From contig JBDRWW010000005.1 in NCBI GenBank assembly GCA_039802605.1, positions 1-64,000 of the forward strand: a DNA stretch of 64,000 nt, in the 5' to 3' direction. Under the pieces are notes generated by a model, which did not search any database, was not told where the DNA came from, and saw nothing but the letters and a program-made list of their open reading frames with translations. The position numbers and the translations under genes are program-made. Positions 11,428 through 25,213 of the stretch are shown piece by piece. Origin of the DNA: a candidate division WOR-3 bacterium. Its GTDB lineage: Bacteria > Hydrothermota > Hydrothermia > LBFQ01. The stretch's first letter is position 1; each line of letters begins with the position of its first letter.

Positions 11428-12085
11428 GGGGAAGTTGTTTATCGTTGCAACACCCATAGGGAACTTGGAGGATATAACTTTAAGGGCTATAAGGACATTA
11501 AAGGAATGCGATTTTATACTCTGTGAGGATACCCGAAGGGCAAAAATACTTTTAAAACATTATGATATAGAAAAGCCGTTAATATCATACTTTGAAGGCA
11601 ATGAAGAAAAAAGGATTCCAGAGGTTTTGGAAATGTTAAGGGAGGGGAAAAAAATAGCCCTAATTTCGGATGCCGGAACCCCTTTGATTTCAGACCCCGG
11701 TTATAAATTGGTTAGAAGGTGCAGGGAGGAAGGTTTTGATGTTATACCTATTCCGGGACCTTCGGCGGTTATATCGGCATTGTCGGTAAGCGGATTGGAA
11801 ACGGATAAGTTTGCCTTTATTGGCTTTCCACCCAAGAAAAGGGGTAAGAGGTTAAAACTTTTGGAAAGTTTAAAGGATTTTGAAGGGAGTTTGGTTTTTT
11901 ATGTATCGCCTTATAAGGTTAAGGAGTTTTTAAAAGAAATTTTAGAAGTCTTTGGGGATAGGCAAGTTTGCGTTTGCAGGGAGATGACAAAAATGTTTGA
12001 GGAGTATGTTTATGGAAAAATCACCGAGGTGATGGATAAGGTAAAGGAAAAGGGGGAATTCGTTATAGTTGTTGGAAAGGGGTGA
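11420..12085 (+). CDS. rsmI: 16S rRNA C1402 2'-O-methyltransferase
   Basis: VATPIGNLEDIT, CEDTR, SDAGTPLISDPG, REMTKMFEE. Confidence 0.95.
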   Translation: MDKGKLFIVATPIGNLEDITLRAIRTLKECDFILCEDTRRAKILLKHYDIEKPLISYFEGNEEKRIPEVLEMLREGKKIALISDAGTPLISDPGYKLVRRCREEGFDVIPIPGPSAVISALSVSGLETDKFAFIGFPPKKRGKRLKLLESLKDFEGSLVFYVSPYKVKEFLKEILEVFGDRQVCVCREMTKMFEEYVYGKITEVMDKVKEKGEFVIVVGKG

Positions 12086-12086
12086 G

Positions 12087-13256
12087 TTATACTATTTTAG
12101 AAATAAGTCCGTTATCTTGCAAGGATTTTATAAACTCATCCAGCGCATTCCATTCGTTTTGGGGCAAATTTACGGTGATGGATTTGCGTTGAACCTCAAA
12201 GCTAAGCTCCGAATTTTCGGGCATAAACCTTGATTTTGCCACTATAAAGAACCCCTCATAAGAATTATTTACTTTGAGGATTTTAAACATTAACGGCGAA
12301 GCGCGGCGCAAGGTTTTCCCATCTTTTTTAAGGTGAATCATACCTCCCTTTTTCAACGATGAAAAATAGAAACCCAAAGGTAAGCCAAAAATTGGTCTTT
12401 CAAAGGTTGGACTTTGCCGCATTTTATATTCCAAAATATCCTTTGCGCTTGAATAATCGGGATTTCTATAACTCCTAAAAGCCATAAGTAGAAAGCCCAT
12501 AAAATCAAGGAGTCCCATCCAGTCGGTTATATTATTTAAACCCCAGGAACTTTTGAGGTAATTACCCCTTCTATCCCTTTGAACTCGTTGTATCCATTGC
12601 TTTAAATTTGAAAGGTTAGCCGTATTAACCTTGTAAATCTCAAAATTAGAACTATCAAAAACATAAGGTATATTTTCCCGAGGTTTCCAATAAATCAAAC
12701 CTTTTATATTTCGTAAGTTTCGTTTTATCCATTCGTTAATCGGTTGAGTAGGCCTAAATTCCAATCCTTCTGGTAATTCTCCACTAACCCCTTCAACCAT
12801 TATTGAACCAAAACCCCTTCTACTCCTACTACCAAAATTCCCGAGATTAAATGCGCACCACACTGCGGAGAAGAATTTTTTAATATCGTCGTCCGTGGCT
12901 TTGGGATGAAAGCGGATGATTAGGTCAAAGGTTTGATTTTCTTTAATATATTCCCTTTGGCGTAACGAAAAACCCAAATAACTAATTCCATTATACCGCC
13001 TAGAATCAATCTTTTGGAATATGTCAGTTTTAAGATTATCAAAGTTGCGAAGGGAAATCCTTACCAAACCCTGATTGGCCTCTTCTCCACCCCACCCGAA
13101 AAGCCTCTTTTCATCCTCAAAAGAGCCTCCCAAAGCTCTAAACCACCACCTTAAAACCCCGTTTATGCTTTGTGTCCTTAACTCCGCCTGACTATTTGCC
13201 CCTCCCATAAATAGCGGAGTTACGATTTTGCACCTTAATTCAAATTTCCTATTCAT
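12087..13256 (-). CDS. cmr1: Type III-B CRISPR RAMP Cmr1 (copy 2)
   Basis: TPLFMGGA, GVLRWWFR, GNFGSRSRRGFGS, FGLP, RRASP. Confidence 0.9.
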   Translation of the reverse strand: MNRKFELRCKIVTPLFMGGANSQAELRTQSINGVLRWWFRALGGSFEDEKRLFGWGGEEANQGLVRISLRNFDNLKTDIFQKIDSRRYNGISYLGFSLRQREYIKENQTFDLIIRFHPKATDDDIKKFFSAVWCAFNLGNFGSRSRRGFGSIMVEGVSGELPEGLEFRPTQPINEWIKRNLRNIKGLIYWKPRENIPYVFDSSNFEIYKVNTANLSNLKQWIQRVQRDRRGNYLKSSWGLNNITDWMGLLDFMGFLLMAFRSYRNPDYSSAKDILEYKMRQSPTFERPIFGLPLGFYFSSLKKGGMIHLKKDGKTLRRASPLMFKILKVNNSYEGFFIVAKSRFMPENSELSFEVQRKSITVNLPQNEWNALDEFIKSLQDNGLISKIV

Positions 13257-13257
13257 G

Positions 13258-14061
13258 CTACAACTTCTTTATTTCTAAGGTATCTAAATACTTCAATGCG
13301 TTCTTAAAATCGTTAAGCCTATTCCACCCGTTGTAAACCAAAACGACGCCAAAGTATTTGCCGTTATCCGTTCTCTTTATTTGGATAACCACGGGTGAAA
13401 CATTCCTTTGGCCTTTCGGCGGTTTGTAGGAGATAGAACGCACATTCAAAAACCCCTTTATCTTAGTATAAAAATCATTCCTCAAACCATAAATAGCCTT
13501 TTCCCAATTCTGCCAAAATCCGTTTCTAGGCTTTACGATATAAACACCGGTGTTGCTTATGTTCATAAAGCCTTGGCTTATATTATTGGCAAAATTACCC
13601 AAAGAATCCAAATCCCTACCCCTCCATTCAAAACCTTTCACCTCAACACTTCCGAAACCCCTCCTCCACCTAGCCCCCAAACCACCGAACAAGGAGAGGA
13701 ACCGTAAAGAATTTTCCAAGTGTTGGGACCAATTATCGTACATAAATGGGGATTCAAAGAGAAGGGTAAATTCTTGATCGGGAAGATAAACCAAGCGTTT
13801 GAGGGGTTTGTAATATTTTCTTTTTTCTGGATAATATATAACCCTTAGGTAAAACGGACAAGACCTTTCCGTTGAGCCAAAGGTTTTATCTTCATTTTCC
13901 CTTAATTCTTTCAAATCATTCACCATACCCGCATAATAAAACCTAAACCACCACCTAAGCATACCCTTTATTGAAGGTATCCTAAACTCCAAATTCCTAT
14001 TTGCCCCTCCCATTGCAAGTGGGGTTAGGATGCGGAAGGAATAATATTTTTTTATCTCCAT
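13258..14061 (-). CDS. cmr1: Type III-B CRISPR RAMP Cmr1 (copy 1, short)
   Basis: TPLAMGGA, FRIPSIKGMLRWWFR, GGLGARWRRGFGS. Confidence 0.85.
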   Translation of the reverse strand: MEIKKYYSFRILTPLAMGGANRNLEFRIPSIKGMLRWWFRFYYAGMVNDLKELRENEDKTFGSTERSCPFYLRVIYYPEKRKYYKPLKRLVYLPDQEFTLLFESPFMYDNWSQHLENSLRFLSLFGGLGARWRRGFGSVEVKGFEWRGRDLDSLGNFANNISQGFMNISNTGVYIVKPRNGFWQNWEKAIYGLRNDFYTKIKGFLNVRSISYKPPKGQRNVSPVVIQIKRTDNGKYFGVVLVYNGWNRLNDFKNALKYLDTLEIKKL

Positions 14062-14073
14062 ACACCAACCCGT

Positions 14074-15381
14074 TTACAAATTATTAATAAGCAATTTTTT
14101 GATTTCTTTCTCCTTCTGCGGGTTATAACGAAGGTATATATGTTTTCCTGAACATTTAAACTGTATTACCGAATCTTCAAAACCCGCGTGGGCAAAGAAA
14201 TTTCTTTGAAATTTTTTCGTATCTTGGGCATTGTCGGAGTGAAAACTGTTCCAAGTGTTTATATTCCTACAATTATCATTACACCTTTTACGCAAATTTT
14301 CCAATTCAACACCTAAATAGCCTTTATGCGTTGAAAGGGAGAAGGTATCGTAAATGCCTCCACCACAAAATTGCGTCTTTATTGTATTTATATGAACGCC
14401 ACTATTTATGTCATATTTATGAACATCTTTAGATAAAACTTCTACAATCCCCGCATAAAAACCCAATGCCAAGAGTGTGTTAATGTAATCGTTCTTTCGC
14501 AAATTTTGGGATTTTTGCCAATTTTGGGATAAAAGTTCTTTTATCTTTCCTATCAAACCTTTAATGGCATTTTTAATCTCTTTGTAATCATGGTAGTCGA
14601 AATGATATATTGCCAAAGGGGTGTTGTTCTTCAAGGCGGAAAAAACTATGGCAAATTTTTCTAAGTAATCTCTTAGATTATCCCTTATAGGCTTTTTTAT
14701 ACCCTCAGCTTTTATGGGTGAGGAGAAAAAGGCTTTAAACTTCATTTCTTCGGTATATATTCTGACTTCTCCTTCCGATGATCCGAGTATTGGTTCGGTA
14801 AATGCTATATAAATTTTGGGTCTAAAATTTTTATTAAGCCAGTTAAACAGATAACCGAACACGGAAATGTGTTTTGCCGCCTCCAATAATGCGGAAACAT
14901 ATATGTTGTGCCCGGAAGATATATCAAAGTAAAACACGGTTTGCGTCCTATCCTTCAAATACCTCTCTATCAAGTCGCATACTATCCCAAGAACTACATC
15001 GCCATACGACCCTTCAAATATCACATCTCCACTCCCATCGGGTTTTTTATATTTTCCGAGGGAATGAACGACGATAAAGTCATCCGCTTCTTTGTTATGA
15101 GGGTGTTCTTTTAAAACTTCGTAGGGATTGGATAAATATGAATCCAACTCGTTAAGGATTTTGGAGACAAAATCGTCATTGCCTTTTAACCTATTTACAA
15201 CATATTCGTTATAAACGATGCTAACCGGATAAACGAGTACTACTTCTGCATCGTTCCCAAAGTGTTCCTTCAAAGCCAAAGATGATAGGGGTTTTTCGTG
15301 GGGTTTACCCTCATATACAAACCGCAAATTATTGCGGTAATTAACATCAAACCTTCCTATTTGATATATAAACCTCTTCAT
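14074..15381 (-). CDS. csx1: CARF-HEPN ribonuclease Csx1
   Basis: CARF DISSGHN motif; HEPN RNFFAH motif; position in cmr operon. Confidence 0.85.
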   Translation of the reverse strand: MKRFIYQIGRFDVNYRNNLRFVYEGKPHEKPLSSLALKEHFGNDAEVVLVYPVSIVYNEYVVNRLKGNDDFVSKILNELDSYLSNPYEVLKEHPHNKEADDFIVVHSLGKYKKPDGSGDVIFEGSYGDVVLGIVCDLIERYLKDRTQTVFYFDISSGHNIYVSALLEAAKHISVFGYLFNWLNKNFRPKIYIAFTEPILGSSEGEVRIYTEEMKFKAFFSSPIKAEGIKKPIRDNLRDYLEKFAIVFSALKNNTPLAIYHFDYHDYKEIKNAIKGLIGKIKELLSQNWQKSQNLRKNDYINTLLALGFYAGIVEVLSKDVHKYDINSGVHINTIKTQFCGGGIYDTFSLSTHKGYLGVELENLRKRCNDNCRNINTWNSFHSDNAQDTKKFQRNFFAHAGFEDSVIQFKCSGKHIYLRYNPQKEKEIKKLLINNL

Positions 15382-17966
15382 ATCCTAACCTCCTTTGCAA
15401 GTGCATTGGAAATTATAAGCAGGTTTGCGAAGTTTAGGGGGTCAAGTTTGTCAAACCAATATAACATTTCCCCAAAGAACTTTTTAACCTTTTCCTCGCT
15501 TTTAACCTTACGGAAAAACACCCTTTTCAATTCGGATTTCAGGATCTTCCTTAAATCTTCGCTATCCTTTCCGTATAAACTTTCAACTATTTCAAGGTAT
15601 TTCCCCGGGAAGTTTGAGGATATTTCTTCCGTCCTAAACTTACATATTAGTTCATTTATAAAATCTATCAACTCCCAGTTTCCACCGCATTCCCTGGCTT
15701 CTCCGCTATGCCTTAAAAATCTAAGGCAAAATGCGTTTTTCTGGTAATGGTCCTTTGCCCTTTTCTCGGCATATCTAACCTCATCCAAAGCCAAATACAA
15801 GGGGTATTTGTAATGCACTATAACTATACCGGCACTCATAGTAGCCCTGGGGCTCAAAGTATCTTTAAAGGCTTTCTGCAAATCATAAGCACAACCTAAG
15901 ACTTCTTCAATCGGTAAAAGTGCTAAAACATCATCCCCACCGGCATATACGAGTTTTCCATAGTGTTCTTCCTCCACTATTTTCCTAACACTTTCAAGGG
16001 CGAAGGTTGATAGCCTTCTTGAAAACGCCTGATGTATTGATGGTGAAGTGGGATGCGGAGAACAGAGGATTTTTAAAACCTTGTCATCCCCATGGGAAAT
16101 AAGCTCCTCCTTTACACCGGGGTGTATTACATCTCCTATTTTTGGGTTAAACTCACCTCTTAGCCACTTACCCATGTTATCCCCATCCATTTGTAAAATT
16201 GCGTAATATCTGGAAGGGTTTATTTCTCTTCCCTGTAAAAAAGATCGCATTTCTTCAAGATACTTTTCATCAACATTTTTTAAGTTGTATTCCCTTTCAA
16301 GGTACTCCTTCCTATAACTGGTTGTAATTAGCCACTGCCCGTCTATGTCGTAAAGGATATCGTCTTTTAATTTTGGGACGGATACCGTTTTGGGTATTTT
16401 TCGGTATTTGCACCTGAAAATTTTAAACTCCCCTTTAAAACACTTTTTAATTTCTTTGGATAACCTCCTCTTCTCCCCTATGCTCGCCATTTCAGAAGTT
16501 GATGGGAACCTTATTGCGTTTTTTAATCCAAAGATATCCTCTATTATTTCGGGAAACAGCCTCTTGGTTGTGCAAACGCCGCAGAGCCTTTCGCCTTCTT
16601 TCACAAGATTTGGTTTTTTATTTCTTAGTTCTTCCCAATTTATATTTAAAACCTCATACTCACCGCAAAGATGACACTTTTCACCCGGTTGCTCCAAATA
16701 TTTAAAATCCCTCACGCTTTTCCTTGCACCGAGAAGTTTTTCCACAAGTTCAATTATCAAGGAATATGCGGAACCAACATTTGCACCTTTATAATACCTA
16801 TGGTCTATTACCTCTTTAACGGTATAGTACAAGGGGGTTTGGCCTATAAGTTTTTTGTAATCTTCAAGGACATCGTCAGGTTTGTAATCATTTTCATCAA
16901 CAACCCAAGGCAAAACCGCCCAATAAACCTGAAAATGAGATAAAAGTTGCTCTTTTATAATTTCCTTCAATCCATCGTTCTGAGAATTAACCTTTTCAGA
17001 AACCTTTTTGGAAATTTTCTCTAATGCCTCCTTAAAGTTATTTTCACAAATATTTGCATTAGAGCTATCGTATGGGATTATGGCGACAAACTTGTTTGGA
17101 ATGTTTGCAATTGTTAGTTCTCCTTCGTTCCTTTTGCACCGTTCTATAAGTTCTTTAAATTCCTCCGTGTTAATCGGGCTATTTTTAAACTTTTCATAAA
17201 GCCATAGGTCGCACAGGGGCTGACCGTAAAGGTTTGGGTATATTATAACATCCGGCCCAAAATCTTCAACCAACGCTTTCATACTCTTCCATGTTAGGTA
17301 CGAAAGCATATAGCTGCCCGCCCATAGATCCGAAGTTTTTCTCGCCTTTGAAATGAAGCTTTGAACTGGCCCTATGGTGAATATTAATATTGCCGGTTTT
17401 GGTAAAGCCGATACTATGGCCGAGGTTTGCACAAGGTGGTCGTAAATGGAGTGGTTTGGAGCCCTAAGGTCTGCTGGGTGTTTTTCAATTTCTGGGAATA
17501 TCTCCGGGTAAAACCTCCAAAGGAAAAGAAATATAAACTTTGCCTTTTCTTCGTCGTTTTCAAACCGTAACCTTCCGAGTTTATCAAACAAATCTTGAAC
17601 TTCTTTGTAATCCGGACTTTCTATGCCTTCCTTTCGAGCGGAAAATATATCTATGAAAATTTTATTCCTCGAAACCACTTTATTGACCCTATTCTCAAAA
17701 TCCTTCTCAGCCAGCTCGGGTTTTACAATTAACCTGCTCATTGAAGAGGCAATTTTATCGGCATTCTTTACATCTTCATCATCAATGTCCTCGTTTGGAA
17801 ACAGCCTTTTTATTAGATCGCAGGCCCATTTTTCGTGAAGGTTTCTATGATGATCACAAAGTAGATTTTTGTTCATCTCCATTTTTGCCCTATCATCCCA
17901 CACCAACCCCTTATATGGCGGGTCGTGAAGCAAAGCCTTTAACTTTTTAAGCCAGAATTTTTTCAT
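15378..17966 (-). CDS. cmr2: Cas10/Cmr2
   Basis: LLHDPP, GPVQSFI..ARKTSDLWAGSY, CxxC pairs, MDGDNMG, YAGGDD cyclase motif. Confidence 0.95.
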   Translation of the reverse strand: MKKFWLKKLKALLHDPPYKGLVWDDRAKMEMNKNLLCDHHRNLHEKWACDLIKRLFPNEDIDDEDVKNADKIASSMSRLIVKPELAEKDFENRVNKVVSRNKIFIDIFSARKEGIESPDYKEVQDLFDKLGRLRFENDEEKAKFIFLFLWRFYPEIFPEIEKHPADLRAPNHSIYDHLVQTSAIVSALPKPAILIFTIGPVQSFISKARKTSDLWAGSYMLSYLTWKSMKALVEDFGPDVIIYPNLYGQPLCDLWLYEKFKNSPINTEEFKELIERCKRNEGELTIANIPNKFVAIIPYDSSNANICENNFKEALEKISKKVSEKVNSQNDGLKEIIKEQLLSHFQVYWAVLPWVVDENDYKPDDVLEDYKKLIGQTPLYYTVKEVIDHRYYKGANVGSAYSLIIELVEKLLGARKSVRDFKYLEQPGEKCHLCGEYEVLNINWEELRNKKPNLVKEGERLCGVCTTKRLFPEIIEDIFGLKNAIRFPSTSEMASIGEKRRLSKEIKKCFKGEFKIFRCKYRKIPKTVSVPKLKDDILYDIDGQWLITTSYRKEYLEREYNLKNVDEKYLEEMRSFLQGREINPSRYYAILQMDGDNMGKWLRGEFNPKIGDVIHPGVKEELISHGDDKVLKILCSPHPTSPSIHQAFSRRLSTFALESVRKIVEEEHYGKLVYAGGDDVLALLPIEEVLGCAYDLQKAFKDTLSPRATMSAGIVIVHYKYPLYLALDEVRYAEKRAKDHYQKNAFCLRFLRHSGEARECGGNWELIDFINELICKFRTEEISSNFPGKYLEIVESLYGKDSEDLRKILKSELKRVFFRKVKSEEKVKKFFGEMLYWFDKLDPLNFANLLIISNALAKEVRI

Positions 17967-18898
17967 CTTTCGCCCTCCCCCATTATAACATCAAAAACTT
18001 TAACATCCTTTGTGTTTGTCGATACATACGCGAAATACCTATCATAAGTTGATGAGTAAAAGGCCCCTGCTATACTTTGAATTTTTTGTCCTCCGGTGGT
18101 ATCAATGATTATTTGCTTATCTTTTAATCTTTTTTCCCTCAAATTTTCAAAAGCCTTTTTGAGGGCGTCGATATTTTTATCCAATTCCTCAAAGTCAATG
18201 GCTTCATAATGCTCTATAACTTCTATATTCGGGAAAAAGTGTTTAACTATTTCTTTGAATATGGATATTTGTTCTTTTGAACTGTTGCTACCTATTACAT
18301 AGACAAATTTCAAAGTATCGCTATATTTTTCAATCAATCGCAATTGCATTTCCCAAGGGCCTCCCCTGTGTTTGTGAAAATCATCGGGTTTTTTAAATTC
18401 AAGCAAATCGTTGGATAAACTTTTGGGGATTTCTTTCCAATAACTCAAAAACATTACCAACCCCTTCACATCTTTGGGTTCAACCTTTTTAATGGAAATG
18501 TTTATATCCAGCTCTTTTATATACAACCAAGAGGATGTAAAAATTCCCAAAGAAAGGAATAATTGAATGATGGGGATGGTGCTATCAATTTCCCAATTTA
18601 AGTAAAGTTTTAAAACCGGTAAGATAAAGGTAAGGGCAATTGTTAATAAGGCGCTTATAAACAAAGCCGTCTCGTAGGTAGGTTTTTTATAGATATTTTT
18701 GTAAATCCAAAATACAACAACGGGTGGAATTACCGAAAGTAAAGCAATAGCTCCCCAAAACCAACCCTTTAACAGAAAGCCTATCACCCCTATTAAACCA
18801 TCTGCAAACCAGGATATTGAGAGAATAAAGGTAGCCGCAAAAATAAATCCCTGGAAGGTTTTTATTTTACCCAACTGATTGACGAGAAAACCTATCAT
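17963..18898 (-). CDS. Transmembrane CARF effector (Cam1-like, about 4 TM)
   Basis: N-terminal about 125 aa of hydrophobic helices; C-terminal KGLVMFLS...IIIDTTGGQKIQSIAGA CARF-type motif. Confidence 0.72.
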   Translation of the reverse strand: MIGFLVNQLGKIKTFQGFIFAATFILSISWFADGLIGVIGFLLKGWFWGAIALLSVIPPVVVFWIYKNIYKKPTYETALFISALLTIALTFILPVLKLYLNWEIDSTIPIIQLFLSLGIFTSSWLYIKELDINISIKKVEPKDVKGLVMFLSYWKEIPKSLSNDLLEFKKPDDFHKHRGGPWEMQLRLIEKYSDTLKFVYVIGSNSSKEQISIFKEIVKHFFPNIEVIEHYEAIDFEELDKNIDALKKAFENLREKRLKDKQIIIDTTGGQKIQSIAGAFYSSTYDRYFAYVSTNTKDVKVFDVIMGEGER

Positions 18899-19242
18899 AA
18901 CGGATTTAGGGGTATAACTTGACCTTCCTTAAATCTCACATCGTGCGATGCGACGATTACGGCGCCTTCAAGCCTCGGGTCGTATATGGCGAGGGCTTTC
19001 ACGATATGGTACCTGTGTACTATAAACGCATAAAACCATATAGGTCCCCTTCCTGAAATTATAACGGTCTTTGAACTGAAGCCGAGTTTTATAGCGTCGG
19101 GAGGGGTTATTCCGTTTAGATCCGTTGGCTCTAGGTTCCTTTTCAGATCAAACTCCACCAGAGCGGTATTCTCATCAACGAAATAAACCTTCCACTTAAC
19201 TATTTGCCCATCTTCTTCAAAGATCACCTTCAAATATTCCAT
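18895..19242 (-). CDS. csx3: CRISPR ring nuclease Csx3/Crn3
   Basis: VIISGRGPIWFYAFIVHRYH, YDPRLEGAVIVASH; likely ATG at 19242. Confidence 0.88.
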   Translation of the reverse strand: MEYLKVIFEEDGQIVKWKVYFVDENTALVEFDLKRNLEPTDLNGITPPDAIKLGFSSKTVIISGRGPIWFYAFIVHRYHIVKALAIYDPRLEGAVIVASHDVRFKEGQVIPLNPL

Positions 19243-20173
19243 ATCCCAACCTCGTTTTCGCACCGACGCCAAACTCTTTTAACGCGCTTTCAATCCAACC
19301 TTTAAGCAAATTTTCCAAGTCATCCGGCTTATGAATCCATTCTTCTAAGATTTTTTTAATCCATGCCTTTAAAATTTCTTTTTTCTGGTTTTTTTCTCCT
19401 TTTTGGTTTTCCAGAATATCGTTATTCTCCAATATCCTATTTGCCCTGAACTCATCAAAAAGAACATAAAACTTAAAAGGTATTCCCCTTTTAACCGTTA
19501 GGAATATTATGGGATTGGGATTTTCCCAATCACCCGGATCACCTTTATCACCGTAATAACTTTTGTAATGAACATTCATAATGTCAAGTTCAAAGATTTC
19601 TTGGTCTTCGTTTATTTCGGGATAGGCATCAAGGAAAACCAAAAGACCCTTAAATCCCTGCGTCCCAAATAGCAGTTTGTGTTTTACAATATCTTCATTC
19701 TCAGAATCGTATAGATCATCTTCGTAAAGTTGTTCTTGTAAGTCTTCCAAGCCTTCTTTACGATCTTTTGCGATTTCCCAAAAGCTAACCATCCTTACAA
19801 CACCCTTTAAAGCGGTGCCGGGGATATACGGAATTCCGAATATATGGTGTAAGGTCAATGAGGTTTCCAAGACATTTGATGATCCAAGACCAACAACGAG
19901 GCGGTAGGCGGTTCTAAGGGTTTTATCAAAAACGACCTTATAGCCTTGCTTTTTAAGATTACAAATTTGGTCTTCTATCCTTTCAATTGGTTTTAGCGGG
20001 ATTTCTGGTATCCTTCTTAAAGATGCCAAAGATCCAGATTTATCTATCTGTTCTTTTTCCCATATGATTTTAACGAGTTTCCCAATACAAAGGCCAACAT
20101 TTTCAATTGTATTTTGTTTTTGGTGAAGGAAATTTAAAAGTTCTTTAAAATTATTCAATTTCCACCTCCACAA
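19217..20173 (-). CDS. cmr6: Type III-B RAMP Cmr6
   Basis: RLVVGLG, LHHIFGIPYIPGTALKG, DIMNVHY, GVGAKTRLGYG. Confidence 0.92.
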   Translation of the reverse strand: MWRWKLNNFKELLNFLHQKQNTIENVGLCIGKLVKIIWEKEQIDKSGSLASLRRIPEIPLKPIERIEDQICNLKKQGYKVVFDKTLRTAYRLVVGLGSSNVLETSLTLHHIFGIPYIPGTALKGVVRMVSFWEIAKDRKEGLEDLQEQLYEDDLYDSENEDIVKHKLLFGTQGFKGLLVFLDAYPEINEDQEIFELDIMNVHYKSYYGDKGDPGDWENPNPIIFLTVKRGIPFKFYVLFDEFRANRILENNDILENQKGEKNQKKEILKAWIKKILEEWIHKPDDLENLLKGWIESALKEFGVGAKTRLGYGIFEGDL

Positions 20174-20507
20174 TTCTCTTTAACCATTGCGCCAGCGCCA
20201 AAGCCTCAACCGTCGCAAGGCGTAGGGTGTTGAAATCGGATTCCGCAATTTCTTTAAGGGCATCCTCTTTAACAATGTTTCGGTTTTTTAGCCATTTATT
20301 AACAATTTCATATATCGGCTTTCTCTCGTCTTTTGAATTGTAAAAGGCAAGGGTGGGAACTAAACCGTTATTTACTATAAGTGCGGGAAGTCTCATAGCC
20401 CCCGTTTTAAATTTTTCGTGTTTAAGTTTGTCGTTTTTTTCTTTAAACTCTCTAACTTCGTTCAAACAAAATGCTGCCCTTTCCTGCTCAAGCGTTCTTT
20501 TGCTCAT
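20151..20507 (-). CDS. cmr5: Type III-B small subunit Cmr5
   Basis: TLEQERAAF, LPALIVNNGL..TLAF, WLKR. Confidence 0.9.
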   Translation of the reverse strand: MSKRTLEQERAAFCLNEVREFKEKNDKLKHEKFKTGAMRLPALIVNNGLVPTLAFYNSKDERKPIYEIVNKWLKNRNIVKEDALKEIAESDFNTLRLATVEALALAQWLKRIVEVEIE

Positions 20508-21534
20508 TCTCTCCTCCTTTGTTTTCCGGATAAAGCCTTACCCTCATAATTCCCCTTCCAAGCGTTTCATCCCCACCGAGTTGGATGATGGGATTATCCT
20601 TAATTAATTCGGATATTTTATTAAAAACATCTTTATACTCCTTAATCTTGTTGTCGTTATTCCTCTTCTTGTCATTATTCTCAACCTCGTTGTTATTACT
20701 CCCTTCGTTCCTCTTTTTCGGATCGGATACAAACAAAAGGGAATAGAATACGCTTTCCGATGGTATAAGTTCCTCCGTGAATAGCGCCCTGCTCTTAACC
20801 GTTCCAGTTAATTGGTTTATCCTTATCCTCGTCCTTATCTCAACGGCATATGTAACAAAGTCCTTGAAAACATTATTGGAAACTATTACCAAACGCTCTT
20901 CAAGGCTTTGGGTTAGGTCATTTTCGGGTAGGATTTTATTTAAGGTTTCAGCCAAATCAATAAATAAATCACTTTGATAAACCTCAAAAACAAACTCTTC
21001 AAGGGCAACACTTTTCTTGTTTTGACCAATTATAAGCGATGAATTCTGTGAAACCAAAACTTTATCATCGCTAAAATTTTCCATTTTTTTCATTTTTTCC
21101 ATCAGACTTTCAATTTTTGATATAAGTTCATTTAAGGTATCATCGGCTTTCAAATTCTGATTTTTTGGAGTTATCTTTAATATCTCTAAATTCTCCTTAA
21201 ACCTTTTCAATACAAGGGGGCAGGTTATCCAAGCGAAAACACCCCTAACGGAACGAACTGGGTAAAGCAATATCTTGGCATCGGTTATGCTTATGCAACT
21301 TGCAAAATCGGAAGAATCTTCCTCGGGCCCGAATATTATTTCCACGGCATCCTTATTCCAATTTCTATAAGCCAAATCCCTTAGAACACCCTTTATTCCG
21401 CTTGACCATAGAACCGGAAAGCCCGTATGTCTCTCCCTTTGAACGGGCAAATCCACATAAGAGACGCTTTGCCCGGCACCCATATGCACCGGCGTTTCCG
21501 CATAAAATGTTATCAATGCGCCCTCTTTATACAT
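20488..21534 (-). CDS. cmr4: Type III-B RAMP Cmr4
   Basis: TPVHMGAG, VDLPVQRE (catalytic Asp retained), QLGGDETLGRG. Confidence 0.93.
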   Translation of the reverse strand: MYKEGALITFYAETPVHMGAGQSVSYVDLPVQRERHTGFPVLWSSGIKGVLRDLAYRNWNKDAVEIIFGPEEDSSDFASCISITDAKILLYPVRSVRGVFAWITCPLVLKRFKENLEILKITPKNQNLKADDTLNELISKIESLMEKMKKMENFSDDKVLVSQNSSLIIGQNKKSVALEEFVFEVYQSDLFIDLAETLNKILPENDLTQSLEERLVIVSNNVFKDFVTYAVEIRTRIRINQLTGTVKSRALFTEELIPSESVFYSLLFVSDPKKRNEGSNNNEVENNDKKRNNDNKIKEYKDVFNKISELIKDNPIIQLGGDETLGRGIMRVRLYPENKGGENEQKNA

Positions 21535-21536
21535 AT

Positions 21537-22628
21537 CTAACCCCCTTTTACTACCAAAACCAAATTTGTCCCTATAAACTCCTGATCTCCCGCCATATCC
21601 TTAACCTTGTACCCGTTCCCATCCTTTACCAAAAACCCAAGCGTTTCTATTGAAATGTCTTCCTCACACTCCGCCCAAATAACCGCTCCGGGTGGTAAAG
21701 ACTTAACGGTTTTTCTTCCCTTATTCTTTGAATTAATACCCAGAATACTATACCCATCAACACACATAGAAATCACCTTAAAACCTTCAATCTTTGGAAC
21801 GAAGTTATCCCCTTCAAAAACCCCATAACTCAAAAACAAAAACATAACCCTATCCTCCCTTTTTAAATCCAGTTTTTCGTCTAATCCAAGTTCTTTAAGA
21901 AGGAATTCCCGGAAATCACAATTTTCGGCTTTATATCTCACACTTCTCATTTCCCCACCGAGTTTTAAAACCATAGGTGTGTTATATAAAAACCCTTCGT
22001 CATTTTTATCTTTGAAATCCACCCAAAAAGCGAAGGAACAATCATCATTCAACTCCAAATACTTTACCCTATACATCGCATTTTCCTCTCCTCCTACGGA
22101 ATTTAAGTTTCTGTCCATCTTTATACCGACCCTACCATCATATTTAAAGATACTCGCATTTCCTACAATATCCCTATTCAAAGTGTTAGGATTACCTTTT
22201 AAAAGTTCCTTTAAGCCTTTAAGATTGATAAACCCCCGAAAACCCTCAATTTCCTCAGAACCTTTATAAATCGGAAGCATTTCAATATTCGGTTTATTCG
22301 TGTTTTTATATTTAAAAATCCTAAAATTGCCATCATTTTGGGGTTTTAATATGAAGAATCTATTACCGGAGTCTTTTTTCCTCTCGCCATAAAGGTTGCA
22401 AGGCTTGGGTAATAAAAGTTCTCCCTTATACTCCACAAAAGGACCATAAACGGCGTTTAAAATGTTTGAAACATCTTTATTTTTGTGGGTGTATATCTTT
22501 GAACACACCGCACCCGCAAATGTTGTGGGATGGGGTGGGAATACGCTTTCGGCCACATCACCCATGTTAAAAGGTTTTCCAGAACCAAAGAACAAAACAT
22601 CAAAGGGTTTAATGGTTAGTTTTATCAC
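21537..22628 (-). CDS. cmr3: Type III-B Cmr3
   Basis: PFDVLFFGSGKPF, FPPHPTTFAGA, LKLGGE, LPPGAV. Confidence 0.9.
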   Translation of the reverse strand: MIKLTIKPFDVLFFGSGKPFNMGDVAESVFPPHPTTFAGAVCSKIYTHKNKDVSNILNAVYGPFVEYKGELLLPKPCNLYGERKKDSGNRFFILKPQNDGNFRIFKYKNTNKPNIEMLPIYKGSEEIEGFRGFINLKGLKELLKGNPNTLNRDIVGNASIFKYDGRVGIKMDRNLNSVGGEENAMYRVKYLELNDDCSFAFWVDFKDKNDEGFLYNTPMVLKLGGEMRSVRYKAENCDFREFLLKELGLDEKLDLKREDRVMFLFLSYGVFEGDNFVPKIEGFKVISMCVDGYSILGINSKNKGRKTVKSLPPGAVIWAECEEDISIETLGFLVKDGNGYKVKDMAGDQEFIGTNLVLVVKGG

Positions 22629-23470
22629 TCTATGGATTTCAATATACTAAGGGCAACCAACCTTATAAGCGGTTTCTTATTTTTGTTGTAAATATACTCT
22701 TCAAAAGCAATTTCAACCTCTTCTGGTGGTATAGTGTATGATATTTCTATAGGAAGCCAAGGGAAGGGAAAACCATATTTACGCCATAAGTAATACCAAT
22801 CTTCAATTGTCCAATACCAACGATTGTGCGGAATTGGCACATCGTTATGCTTCCACAAATCCAAAAAGTGAGGAATGGCATAATCGGGATATTTCAACCA
22901 ATAGTAATAACCGGCATATTCCCCGGGTCTATTTTTAAGAAAATACGAAAGTTTTGAAATTTCAGATCTCATATGGTAATAAGCGGTGGCTTCGCATAAA
23001 CTTTCCTCAATTACCTTGTAATAATCGGGAAAACTACCCGATCTGTATTTATGATTTGGGGCATCAAGGTATGCATGCGTTAATTCGTGAATTAGAACGA
23101 ATTTAAAAACGCTTTCGGGATTTTGATATTTCCAAATCCTTTCGGGGCATAGATAAATTCTACCATTAGTATAGCAACCCAAATTTACAATCTTTGTTTT
23201 ACATCTTGAAAGCATACGGTCAAGTTCCTCCGATGAAATATGCTCTCCCCTTTCCATCCTACTTTCAATGACTTGCATAATATCCTTTACGCATTCTTCG
23301 CTTAATCCATCACTCGGCGGGCAAACCTGATCCATAGTGCTTTCGTTTACGGTTATAACCTCCGTAATTTTGTGCCAAGCCATTATAAGATATGTTAGCC
23401 TATTGACTACATCGTTATACAAATCCATAGGCACATTTATGCTGCTGTCCATATTATGTATGACCGGCAT
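22625..23470 (-). CDS. Putative gluzincin-type metallopeptidase, first gene of the cmr operon
   Basis: VLIHELTHAY (HExxH) plus downstream IEESLCEA; GTGA overlap with cmr3. Confidence 0.65.
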   Translation of the reverse strand: MPVIHNMDSSINVPMDLYNDVVNRLTYLIMAWHKITEVITVNESTMDQVCPPSDGLSEECVKDIMQVIESRMERGEHISSEELDRMLSRCKTKIVNLGCYTNGRIYLCPERIWKYQNPESVFKFVLIHELTHAYLDAPNHKYRSGSFPDYYKVIEESLCEATAYYHMRSEISKLSYFLKNRPGEYAGYYYWLKYPDYAIPHFLDLWKHNDVPIPHNRWYWTIEDWYYLWRKYGFPFPWLPIEISYTIPPEEVEIAFEEYIYNKNKKPLIRLVALSILKSIE

Positions 23471-23485
23471 AGGATGGTAATTATA
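23471..23485 (-). promoter_or_regulatory. -10 box of the cmr operon (leaderless-type)
   Basis: Minus strand TATAAT-TACCATCCT-ATG. Confidence 0.65.
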
Positions 23486-23585
23486 TAACGGAATCCGGTT
23501 ATGCGTTATAGGGCTTAAAACCCAAGGTCTTAACGAATATTATACGGGTATATGCGATTATTTGAACACTTATCAGTTAAAAACC

Positions 23586-24236
23586 TTATTTTACAGGTTT
23601 AAAGCCCGCGATTTTAACCAATACAATTTTACCCAAAACCGAAGAAAAAAGGTCGGATAAAACCGCTTGGGTGTTCTCTATTAACTGTTTGTTCCAAATA
23701 TCTATTTCTTCCTTCGCCTTCCTTTTAGCATAAACCATCATACTATCAAAAACGGGTGAGGCCTCAAAAGACTTCATGGGTGTTCCGAAAATCCCCAATT
23801 CTTCCGAAACAACCCACCACTTTTGAATACTTACATCTATCTTTGGTTCCGGCATAACTATATCCACAGTTATCGTATCCCCCTTATGCCCGAGTTTGAT
23901 ATCCTCTTTCTTTATCTTTGAAATATCAAAACCCAACTTGTAAAGGACAACATAGCTTATGTTTGTTTTTCTTCCCCCTATCTTTATGGGCCCGGGTATT
24001 AAAGGGCTAACGGTATCCTGATAGATATACTCCCTTTGAACCTCCAATGTTATCAAATCCGCCACACTTCTCATTGACCTTAAAATCCCATCGGGGGTAA
24101 TAACAAAGGTATAATGCTTATCCCTGAACAAAGCGGAAATCCCTGCCCTGTTTATATATAAAACTCCTATTACCGTCCATATCAAACCCCATATAACCAT
24201 AAACCAACAAACCTTTTTCCAAAAACCTTTAAACAT
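23586..24236 (-). CDS. Single-TM protein, DUF4230-like
   Basis: N-terminal TM; LITLE...KLGFDISKI...VDIVMPEPKI pattern. Confidence 0.6.
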   Translation of the reverse strand: MFKGFWKKVCWFMVIWGLIWTVIGVLYINRAGISALFRDKHYTFVITPDGILRSMRSVADLITLEVQREYIYQDTVSPLIPGPIKIGGRKTNISYVVLYKLGFDISKIKKEDIKLGHKGDTITVDIVMPEPKIDVSIQKWWVVSEELGIFGTPMKSFEASPVFDSMMVYAKRKAKEEIDIWNKQLIENTQAVLSDLFSSVLGKIVLVKIAGFKPVK

Positions 24237-24283
24237 AAGCGGATATTGTAAGGTTAATCCCTATGCCACCTTAAAATTACGGG
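24237..24283. promoter_or_regulatory. Back-to-back divergent -10 boxes
   Basis: CCT-TACAAT on minus (24250-24245) and CCT-TAAAAT on plus (24272-24277), 8 and 6 nt from the starts. Confidence 0.65.
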
Positions 24284-25213
24284 TTGAAAACCGTTATAGC
24301 CCTTGGCGGGAATGCTTTAAGGAAAAAGGGTGAGGGCTTTGATTTTGATACGCATTACGAAAACGCCTATTTAACCTTTTCAAATTTAGCCGATACGGGG
24401 ATATTCTCGGATGAGTTTAAGGTGTGTATAACGCATGGAAATGGGCCACAGGTAGGTATGGAATTTATGAAAAACTTTTTGAGTAAGGATAAGTTTCCGA
24501 TATTTCCCCTTGATTCGCTAACGGCATCCACGCAGGGATGGATAGGTTATATCTTTGAGAGGGCTTTGAGAAAGGTTTTTAAAGAGAGGGGAATAAAAAG
24601 GGAAGTTGTTGCCATAATTACCCTCGTTGAGGTTGATAAAAACGACCCATCCTTGAAAAATCCCACAAAGCCAATAGGCGAATTTCTAAACGAAAAGGAG
24701 GCAAAGGAGTTGTCAATATTAACGGGTTTGCCCGTAAAGATGGATTCAAACAGGGGTTGGAGGTTTGTCGTTGGCTCACCTTACCCAAAGAGGGTTTTAA
24801 ACGCCGGTATAATCAACACGCTTTTAGAAATGGGAATGGTGGTTATAGCGGTGGGTGGGGGTGGTATCCCGGTTGATAAGGATTTAAACGGCGTTCCCGC
24901 CGTAATTGATAAAGATTTGGCATCCTCGCTTTTGGCAAGGGAGATCAATGCAAACGAGTTTATAATTTTAACCGAGGTTCCGGAAGTTTATATAAACTTT
25001 GGAAAGGCAAACCAAAAGCCTTTAAAAAACATTAGAATTTCCGATTTGGAAAGGTTTTTAAAGGAAGGGCATTTTGCACCGGGAAGTATGGAGCCCAAAA
25101 TAAGGGCCGTTATAGAGTTTGTAAAAAACGGAAGCGGAAAAGCCCTTATTACATCACCCGAACACTTAAAGGAAGCGTTAAGAGGTGAAAGGGGTACCTG
25201 GATTTTACATTAA
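24284..25213 (+). CDS. arcC: Carbamate kinase
   Basis: ALGGNAL, THGNGPQVG, NPTKPIG, AVIDKD, GSMEPKI. Confidence 0.95.
   Translation: MKTVIALGGNALRKKGEGFDFDTHYENAYLTFSNLADTGIFSDEFKVCITHGNGPQVGMEFMKNFLSKDKFPIFPLDSLTASTQGWIGYIFERALRKVFKERGIKREVVAIITLVEVDKNDPSLKNPTKPIGEFLNEKEAKELSILTGLPVKMDSNRGWRFVVGSPYPKRVLNAGIINTLLEMGMVVIAVGGGGIPVDKDLNGVPAVIDKDLASSLLAREINANEFIILTEVPEVYINFGKANQKPLKNIRISDLERFLKEGHFAPGSMEPKIRAVIEFVKNGSGKALITSPEHLKEALRGERGTWILH

Follow-up and report, generated by a model that had tools for sequence, protein, structure and literature searches.

What would a small protein with a metallopeptidase-like HExxH motif be doing at the head of a type III-B CRISPR operon? The question is raised by a stretch of 64,000 nucleotides (nt) from a candidate division WOR-3 bacterium (assembly GCA_039802605.1, contig JBDRWW010000005.1, positions 1 to 64,000; hereafter the window), in which an ATG-started open reading frame (ORF) on the minus strand encodes a protein of 281 amino acids (aa), here called the HExxH protein. 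We find that it is the founding example of an unnamed, conserved zincin family, and that the family's link to type III-B loci is solid yet non-exclusive. Accessory proteases of CRISPR systems are already known; what is new here is an unnamed zincin family as a type III-linked accessory. An initial annotation, made from the sequence alone, had placed the gene at 22625..23485 and named no strand; the 281-aa ORF is real, and the upper coordinate overshoots its start codon, at 23470, by 15 nt.

The HExxH gene leads the type III-B operon, as initially proposed: it is the first of 11 same-strand, tightly packed genes of an 11.4-kb locus (Table 1), lying between a DUF4230 protein gene and cmr3, and the locus is of the kind that signals through cyclic tetra-adenylate (cA4). 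Neighbouring genes of the operon overlap by up to 56 nt or are separated by at most 12 nt, and four of the junctions are 4-nt overlaps. One of these joins the TGA stop of the HExxH gene to the GTG start of the next ORF, a clear Cmr3, so that the minus strand reads GTGA (tcac at plus-strand 22625-22628), again as first noticed. The overlap and the packing of the genes suggest that the HExxH gene is co-transcribed and translationally coupled with cmr3; the same 4-nt HExxH/cmr3 overlap is found in a sister-species locus (L001), and a 4-nt overlap with cmr6 in three further loci (L017, L018 and L020). The claim that the only -10 box for the whole operon lies directly in front of the HExxH gene did not survive. 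Fourteen minus-strand promoter-like sites occur in 11800-24400, and one inside cas10 (17269..17242) equals the score of the site upstream of the HExxH gene and has a TG extension in addition; as the scan total of 31 sites is not above that in shuffled sequences (35.6 +/- 6.0), such matches are no more than chance.

The four motifs singled out initially are all present in the translation, with LGCY at aa 97-100, IYLCPERI at aa 105-112, and HELTH and EESLCEA further on (Table 1). So is the aromatic and Pro-rich C-terminal region, in which Trp, Tyr and Phe make up 31% of aa 186-262 (together with nine Pro) against 10% of aa 1-185. Across an alignment of 59 sequences, the members of which are 21-69% identical to the query, the median aromatic content is 22% in the C-terminal segment versus 11% in the N-terminal part. 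H128, E129, H132, E156 and Y185 are invariant in this alignment, and D47, P51, G98, Y100, R111, E155, P182 and E184 are conserved in at least 90% of it; E156 is 24 residues past H132, on the following helix. An HE..H motif is present in 147 of the 152 family proteins gathered.

A word-indexed search recovered four relatives among 280 candidates, and an exhaustive profile search of 1.84 billion representatives recovered 197 at E<=0.001, 68 at E<=1e-10 and eight at E<=1e-30. In the ten relative clusters that were looked up, every publicly named member is a 'hypothetical protein', save one Joint Genome Institute member labelled as a GntR-family regulator, and the nearest Atlas clusters are labelled as commonest in Bacteroidota. 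At E<=0.01 the query has no match in Pfam, NCBIfam or PADLOC. Its only Pfam rows at E<=10, all sub-threshold, are Peptidase_M76 (0.049), DA1-like (0.081) and SprT-like (0.19); the 5027 defence-system models of PADLOC-DB give no match at E<=10; and none of 100 relatives compared with Pfam reaches the cut-off of any peptidase family. Among PDB sequences, the profile search returned a single chain, the site-2 protease homologue 3b4r (E 0.24), and a single-sequence phmmer search gave Spartan (E 0.085). Domain scans (Pfam, NCBIfam and PADLOC) and the structural model agree with the initial annotation that neither a CARF nor a SAVED sensor domain is visible in the HExxH protein.

The AlphaFold2 (AF2) model is a single domain over residues 1-281 (predicted local distance difference test, pLDDT, 91; predicted template modelling score, pTM, 0.90), with 10-residue blocks across aa 211-250 averaging pLDDT 59-74. 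Foldseek found nothing in the PDB at E<=0.001, its best match being YbeY (E 0.06). With VIA-align, an exhaustive structural aligner, nearly all of the top 50 rows are zincin metallohydrolases: YbeY (Z 8.9-9.2, 121-123 aligned residues, root-mean-square deviation 3.2-3.6) is tied with peptidase rows, among them the M1 F3 factor (Z 8.9, 172 residues), M3 peptidases (Z 8.8-8.9, 156-160 residues) and LTA4 hydrolase (Z 8.7, 177 residues), with thermolysin (Z 7.3, 175 residues) and Wss1 (Z 6.2-6.9, 93-104 residues) further down. By the aligner's own guidance such Z values lie in the middle range, so a general zincin fold (mixed sheet, active-site helix and helical lower subdomain) is claimed, without a specific family. 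On this model, the HExxH protein is predicted to have a zincin fold.

Gluzincin peptidases (clan MA) build their active site from an HExxH motif, a Glu on the following helix, some 20-30 residues past the second His, and a Tyr further along. By analogy with these enzymes, H128, H132 and E156 would be the zinc ligands, E129 would be the general base and Y185 the likely transition-state residue, and zinc binding and peptidase activity can be predicted. The initial description of an uncharacterised, gluzincin-like protein was thus apt, given a full gluzincin-type residue set, a zincin model and no named family. With the gluzincins (M4 thermolysin, M1 and M3) the HExxH protein would have in common the fold, the HExxH helix, the Glu on the next helix and the later Tyr; it differs from them in matching none of their sequence families (Z 7-9, identity 7-12%), in its small size and in having none of their flanking domains. 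SprT, Wss1 and WLM proteins carry a third His (HExxHx5H), and the query lacks a conserved third His and scores 12 bits against the SprT-like cut-off of 25.6 (E 0.19). Membership of the YgjP-like family (PF01863), small HExxH proteins that are also found in defence loci, is indicated neither by Pfam, which gives no match, nor by hhalign (probability 12%, covering the HExxH helix only).

The genomic context of the family was judged from 37 loci that carry one of its genes. Besides the window, these are six loci from species genomes and 30 among the listed matches of one metagenome scan; a scan of genome contigs gave one locus only. As the metagenome scan used patterns from 13 close sequences (at least 600 pattern matches), the contexts are those of the closer subfamily, among the matches listed. 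Flanks were annotated with NCBIfam and Pfam, and neighbours were clustered by BLAST; 31 loci were informative and six were too short to judge (L025, L028, L031, L032, L035 and L037). In 18 of the 31 informative loci, the family member is placed among or next to type III cas genes; these 18 represent seven lineages and at least six gene orders. The location of homologues had been put forward in the initial annotation as a check on its proposal, and in this sample they do not sit mostly away from CRISPR loci. Within the stretches examined, a gene for Csx3 or for a Crn1-like protein is present at 14 of the 18 type III-linked loci. A homologue of the window's membrane protein with a probable C-terminal CARF domain (TM-CARF) is present in five HExxH loci, this pairing occurring in three of the seven type III-linked lineages, and in four of the seven a CARF-domain protein (Crn1-like, TM-CARF, CARF-HTH or Csx1; HTH, helix-turn-helix) adjoins the HExxH gene, in either order. 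No relative was found on viral contigs (among 63 pattern matches) or, by tblastn, in 72,556 plasmid or 50,697 phage records, and a Foldseek search of BFVD gave no match to the HExxH model at E<=0.001.

Table 1. Features of the window and gene arrangements at loci with family members. Positions without a locus handle are those of the window; > marks gene order.
Feature or locus	Position	Strand	Evidence or arrangement
Predicted zincin-fold HExxH protein gene	22625..23470	-	ORF; no Pfam, NCBIfam or PADLOC family; 197 relatives; AF2 pLDDT 91
HELTH, predicted zinc-binding/catalytic helix	aa 128-132, nt 23075..23089	-	H128, E129, H132 invariant in 59 sequences; model helix 118-135
EESLCEA	aa 155-161, nt 22988..23008	-	E156 invariant, E155 at least 90% conserved; model helix 149-166
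Aromatic/Pro-rich C-terminal segment	aa 186-262, nt 22685..22915	-	31% W/Y/F; lower model confidence
Promoter-like match upstream of HExxH gene, candidate only	23566..23539	-	TTCAAA-16-TATAAT; 10/12 consensus positions
cmr3	21537..22628	-	TIGR01888 E 7e-51, 173 bits vs cut-off 100; PF09700
cmr4	20488..21534	-	TIGR02580 E 1.3e-80
cmr5	20151..20507	-	TIGR01881 E 3.8e-29
cmr6	19217..20173	-	TIGR01898 E 7.5e-63
csx3/crn3 ring nuclease	18895..19272	-	TIGR02579 E 5.4e-29
Membrane protein, probable C-terminal CARF (TM-CARF)	17963..18898	-	Sub-threshold PF23400 E 3.5e-4, TIGR02710 E 4.7e-6, Crn1 Sso2081 E 0.034
cas10/cmr2	15378..17966	-	TIGR02577 E 8.4e-115; GGDD cyclase motif in translation
csx1 (CARF-HEPN)	14074..15381	-	TIGR01897 E 7.9e-48; R-x4-H motif (RNFFAH) in translation
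cmr1 paralogue	13258..14061	-	TIGR01894 E 5.4e-26
cmr1 paralogue, last gene of operon	12087..13256	-	TIGR01894 E 8.6e-14
Window, L001			HExxH>cmr3
L016			cas3-4-1-2, 66-repeat array, then HExxH>cmr1-3-4-5...6-csx3-csx1-cas10
L015, L017-L020, L022, L036			Crn1-like CARF protein>HExxH>cmr6
L010			Crn1-like>HExxH, then TM-CARF>csx1>cas10
L011			Crn1-like>HExxH; ended by contig edge
L026			HExxH>Crn1-like; 2.3-kb contig, accessory genes only
L013			cmr6>HExxH>csx1>cas10
L030, L033, L034			Cas_NE0113 CARF protein with sub-threshold HTH matches>HExxH>III-D-like cas10
Probable CARF-regulated transcription factor	L030:8694-9644; L033:2097-3047		Cas_NE0113 with sub-threshold C-terminal HTH
L023			cmr operon, 22-repeat array (cmr3 across array), then HExxH reading outward
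L014, L021, L024 (non-CRISPR)	L014:6412-10852; L024:1-4064		hsdR>YgjP-like peptidase>HExxH; L021 shows part only
L027, L039, L041-L043 (non-CRISPR)	L041:2547-5678; L042:7851-10987; L043:4792-7931; L039:3-5576; L027:297-3377		Three-gene modules with AAA_5/MCM-type ATPase
L029 (non-CRISPR)			HSDR_N_2 protein and housekeeping genes
L038 (non-CRISPR)			Near RelA/SpoT-type HD protein, addAB, mcrB
L054 (G017; non-CRISPR)			Between uvrB and class II tRNA synthetase (aspS); two Cmr2 genes elsewhere in G017
L040 (non-CRISPR)			Flanks without any match
L012 (non-CRISPR)	L012:10001-10604 (G014:C41)		Degraded second copy, in-frame stops, beside phnE permease genes
MntA/HepT insertions	L010:13993-14752; L018:4249-4897; L011:2493-3141; L022:4362-5010		In III-B operons
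DUF6036/AbiEii-like nucleotidyltransferase, 186 aa	L018:5279-6026		Also in L011, L013, L016, L017, L019, L020, L022, L026

The independence of these associations can be read from a tree of 30 rows, from which degraded or partial copies (L012 and L036) and copies outside the BLAST cluster (L037, L039 and L041-L043) were left out. The type III-linked copies form seven lineages interleaved with non-CRISPR copies, and the type III label needs 6-7 changes on the tree; sister pairs include the restriction-modification (R-M) clade with L016, the L027 clade with L023, and the copy of genome G017 with L013. The Cas10 proteins of six of the seven lineages are 46-62% identical to one another and 27-29% identical to the Cas10 of the L030 group, whereas the HExxH proteins of those loci are 26-39% identical and evolve faster than Cas10 or Cmr4. 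The Cas10 proteins of the six lineages thus belong to one III-B clade, which argues for long retention through changes of gene order plus at least one further association, and not for seven acquisitions.

Within the phylum's 272 species genomes, the HExxH family occurs in seven, Cmr2 in 41 and both in five; a Cmr2 match is thus present in 5/7 genomes with the HExxH gene versus 36/265 without it, counts that overstate independence as the genomes are mutually related. One of the seven, the sister species G002, was counted as lacking Cmr2, and its HExxH gene lies beside cmr3 and cmr4 where the contig ends. In the other of the seven without Cmr2, genome G116, a weak partial match (E 5.9e-8, 51 profile positions) to a 393-aa ORF with a ParE-like tail was kept outside the context tallies. 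Between the window's genome (G000) and G002, ten common flanking proteins are 89-95% identical, against 67% for the HExxH protein, 79% for Cmr3 and 70% for Cmr4; two other species of the genus have a BFN-domain nuclease and then a tyrosine recombinase after the conserved DUF4230 gene (L064:4472-5529; L067:511-1805). This drop in identity and the other genes that follow the DUF4230 gene indicate that the HExxH gene belongs to a variable cmr cassette and not to the conserved flank; the position that follows the DUF4230 gene is possibly a spot of variable integration.

With about even confidence, we propose that the HExxH protein is a soluble zinc peptidase, co-expressed with the Cmr complex, that acts in trans on a response or invader protein without sensing a nucleotide itself. 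It would be a single-domain accessory metallopeptidase made from the III-B operon; having neither a CARF nor a SAVED sensor, it could not be switched directly by the nucleotide signal. By acting in trans on a response protein, it would join the ring nuclease in tuning how strong or how long-lasting the signalling is. Candidate targets would be the ring nuclease itself, a CARF effector such as Csx1 or the TM-CARF protein, or an inhibitor made by a phage; both the substrate and the direction of effect are inferred. That a CARF protein is the neighbour in four of the seven lineages agrees with a place in the layer that controls cA4 signalling, and would also suit the split CARF-protease effector considered below.

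Several results weigh against this proposal. The model matches best with YbeY, which is an RNase rather than a protease; 13 of the 31 informative loci lie outside CRISPR loci; and no neighbour is constant across loci, so that no partner or substrate is indicated. The type III association may rest on about two origins plus retention. In the phylum, 36 of the 41 Cmr2-bearing genomes have no HExxH gene, which is therefore dispensable for III-B systems and an accessory rather than a core subunit. The idea of a new ancillary protease of type III immunity, as first put forward, accordingly holds for the linkage of most sampled loci, and is qualified by the copies found elsewhere and by the many Cmr2 genomes that do without the gene.

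Described proteases of type III loci differ from the HExxH protein in build. Main-text passages of PMC11229360 present the SAVED-Lon protease CalpL, with CalpT and CalpS, and SAVED-CHAT as type III-locus proteases that answer Cas10-made signals. Like the HExxH protein, CalpL and SAVED-CHAT are encoded in type III loci; unlike it, a predicted zincin without a sensor domain, they have a fused SAVED sensor and are of the Ser/Cys type, and no fusion of SAVED, CARF or TPR with a Lon or CHAT domain (the CalpL, SAVED-CHAT and Csx29 type) was found in the HExxH protein. Passages of 10.1101/270033 describe CARF-2TM-Lon fusions and stand-alone TM-CARF proteins in type III loci; CARF-2TM-Lon pairs a membrane CARF with a protease, whereas the predicted protease of HExxH loci is encoded on its own and would be of another catalytic class. 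The type III-linked peptidase clusters named in passages of PMC6546367 are aspartic-peptidase-like, Lon or of the AB hydrolase family. The initial summary of known type III proteases as Lon or CHAT-like is therefore right as far as it goes, with the aspartic-peptidase-like cluster to be added, and in the passages cited the HExxH family is not among them. A zinc or HExxH peptidase of ~280 aa linked to type III is not described in main-text passages of PMC11229360, PMC12409355, 10.1101/270033, PMC6546367, PMC10910872 and PMC3973734; as a cluster without a name, the family may still be among the entries of their supplementary tables or of the PMC6546367 online catalogue. Full-text literature searches found no paper describing it. 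Type III accessories in the passages of these papers are mostly sensor-fused nucleases, membrane proteins and Lon/CHAT-type proteases. A conserved, sensor-less zinc peptidase in cmr operons would add a new catalytic class to the type III toolbox, and would point to protein-level control or attack beyond current models, through effector lifetime, the ring nuclease or phage-made inhibitors. Since the family also lies beside type I restriction and AAA-ATPase modules, its substrate may reveal a mechanism common to defence systems; its members are small, soluble and confidently predicted, and so easy to express and test.

The main rival reading, which we consider somewhat unlikely, is that the HExxH protein is a generic defence-island or stress peptidase hitch-hiking in cmr operons without a specific type III tie, for example a Lit-like abortive infection (Abi) toxin, a destroyer of phage-made inhibitors or a restriction-alleviation-type controller. 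Such a peptidase could be expected to adjoin type I R-M genes together with a second, YgjP-like peptidase (L014, L021 and L024, the latter protein lying directly between hsdR and the HExxH homologue in L014 and L024), to lie beside an HSDR_N_2 protein (L029), to occur in AAA_5 ATPase modules (L027, L039 and L041-L043), to diverge faster than Cas10 (27-39% identity against 46-62%), to lack a sensor domain and to be fused elsewhere to another domain, as in the 464-aa relative P0027, in which an N-terminal EVE domain (PF01878, E 5.4e-9) precedes the zincin part. It would be less expected to sit embedded in cmr operons rather than at their edges, with 4-nt overlaps with cmr3 or cmr6, to be kept in one III-B clade across several rearrangements, and to be without any PADLOC-DB match or any match on phages, plasmids or viral contigs. 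Neither PADLOC-DB (E<=10) nor Pfam (best row E 0.049), both of which we take to hold a model for Lit (Peptidase U49), gave a Lit match for the HExxH protein. Lit is nevertheless a precedent, being a zincin-like peptidase that cleaves EF-Tu during T4 infection (passages of PMC3506569), although this Abi peptidase is borne by the prophage e14 and the HExxH family was not found on mobile records of this kind. We consider it rather unlikely that the family supplies the catalytic part of a CARF-protease effector split over two genes, in which a stand-alone CARF protein (by locus, a membrane CARF, a Crn1-like or a CARF-HTH protein) would sense cA4 and recruit or unleash a zinc peptidase that has no sensor of its own; the aromatic-rich tail of the peptidase might place this event at the membrane. 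If so, type III CRISPR signalling would have its first metalloprotease output, and the peptidase module would be re-used with other sensors beside type I R-M and AAA-ATPase systems. The AF2 model of the window's TM-CARF protein has long N-terminal helices and an alpha/beta C-terminal part, at a pLDDT of 65 that is too poor for a fold search, so that the label 'Cam1-like' rests on architecture and sub-threshold CARF matches; when two copies of its soluble part (aa 136-311) were co-folded with the HExxH protein, the score was 0.00 in both runs, which were made without controls and count neither way.

It is improbable that the HExxH protein is not a protease at all, and is a YbeY-like metal-dependent phosphodiesterase or RNase that cuts RNA or cyclic oligoadenylate as an extra ring nuclease. 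YbeY (UPF0054) is a metallo-endoribonuclease with the metal site H-x3-H-x5-H and without the Glu; the query reads HELTHAYLDAPNH, with the next His 8 residues past H132 and not among the invariant or nearly invariant columns. YbeY does top both structural searches, but the family has the peptidase set of HExxH, downstream Glu and Tyr, peptidases of the M1, M3 and M4 families give the longer alignments (170-185 residues), and most type III-linked loci already carry Csx3 or a Crn1-like protein. A possible precedent is the Csx15/20 cluster, annotated as 'peptidase' in passages of PMC6546367, with Csx15, Csx16 and Csx20 later counted as ring nucleases in passages of PMC12409355 and PMC13148439. The regulatory role by analogy with ImmA, IrrE and CapP that was raised initially, whereby the peptidase would cleave a repressor to induce the cas operon upon infection or damage, is quite improbable. 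ImmA, IrrE and CapP (Peptidase M78) are HExxH peptidases without a sensor domain that are tied to defence or mobile-element loci. The HExxH family is likewise sensor-less, but neither the query (E<=10) nor 100 relatives (E<=0.001) match a Peptidase_M78 or ImmA/IrrE model, and no HTH gene adjoins the HExxH gene in the window, L001, L010, L016 or the L018 group, so that the paired repressor expected of such a regulator is absent from the window. This role would suit the operon's first gene, and in L030 and L033, the only loci with an HTH partner, the HExxH gene directly follows a probable CARF-regulated transcription factor (Table 1); passages of 10.1101/2022.04.27.489752 describe CapH/CapP as a two-protein regulator of the cyclic-oligonucleotide-based anti-phage signalling system (CBASS). 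Highly improbable, finally, is a structural and possibly inactive extra Cmr subunit, as Cmr7 may be in Sulfolobales: if translation is coupled to that of cmr3 or cmr6, this would suggest matched stoichiometry, but the invariant catalytic residues argue for an active enzyme, the gene is present without cas genes in 13 loci, and its position within loci varies. The profile search of PDB sequences, which presumably include Cmr7 structures, returned only the site-2 protease homologue and no Cmr7 chain, and the fold lists have no Cmr7 row, in searches made without a direct sequence comparison. Cmr7 is listed in a table entry of PMC3973734 as a protein of ~200 aa with a metalloprotease domain, tied to III-B variants.

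Beyond the question of function, the non-CRISPR loci show arrangements of their own. A three-gene module recurs in which a distant member is accompanied by an AAA_5/MCM-type ATPase and an unannotated 283-336-aa protein, and the genes around the module are almost without family matches; the L041-type protein is a true distant member of the family (hhalign probability 97.8%). In L014 and L024, hsdR is followed by two different HExxH proteins in succession, the first a YgjP-like peptidase (PF01863) and the second a member of the family studied here. Genome G014 has an intact HExxH copy inside a III-B locus besides its degraded copy. In L030 and L033, the Cas_NE0113 CARF gene is placed between a III-B module and a III-D-like module.

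No CRISPR array was found within the window. Arrays of a single repeat type lie at six contig ends of the window's genome (G000:C5:111232-111439, on the window's contig, and on C9, C13, C15, C18 and C23), which indicates that arrays break this assembly; none adjoins the cmr operon. Two neighbouring Cmr1 paralogues end the window operon (12087-14061), and two Cmr1 genes are also present in L010, L018 and L022. Several III-B operons with an HExxH gene contain further insertions: a DUF6036/AbiEii-like nucleotidyltransferase gene in nine loci, preceded in six of the nine by an ORF of 73-79 aa, so as to resemble a toxin-antitoxin-like pair among cmr genes, and genes of the type VII toxin-antitoxin pair MntA/HepT, which separate cmr4 from cmr5 or cmr1. 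The III-B operon of L010 ends with a CDC48/FtsH-like AAA ATPase (L010:1456-2763) that has a short N-terminal match to NF002008 ('hypothetical protein').

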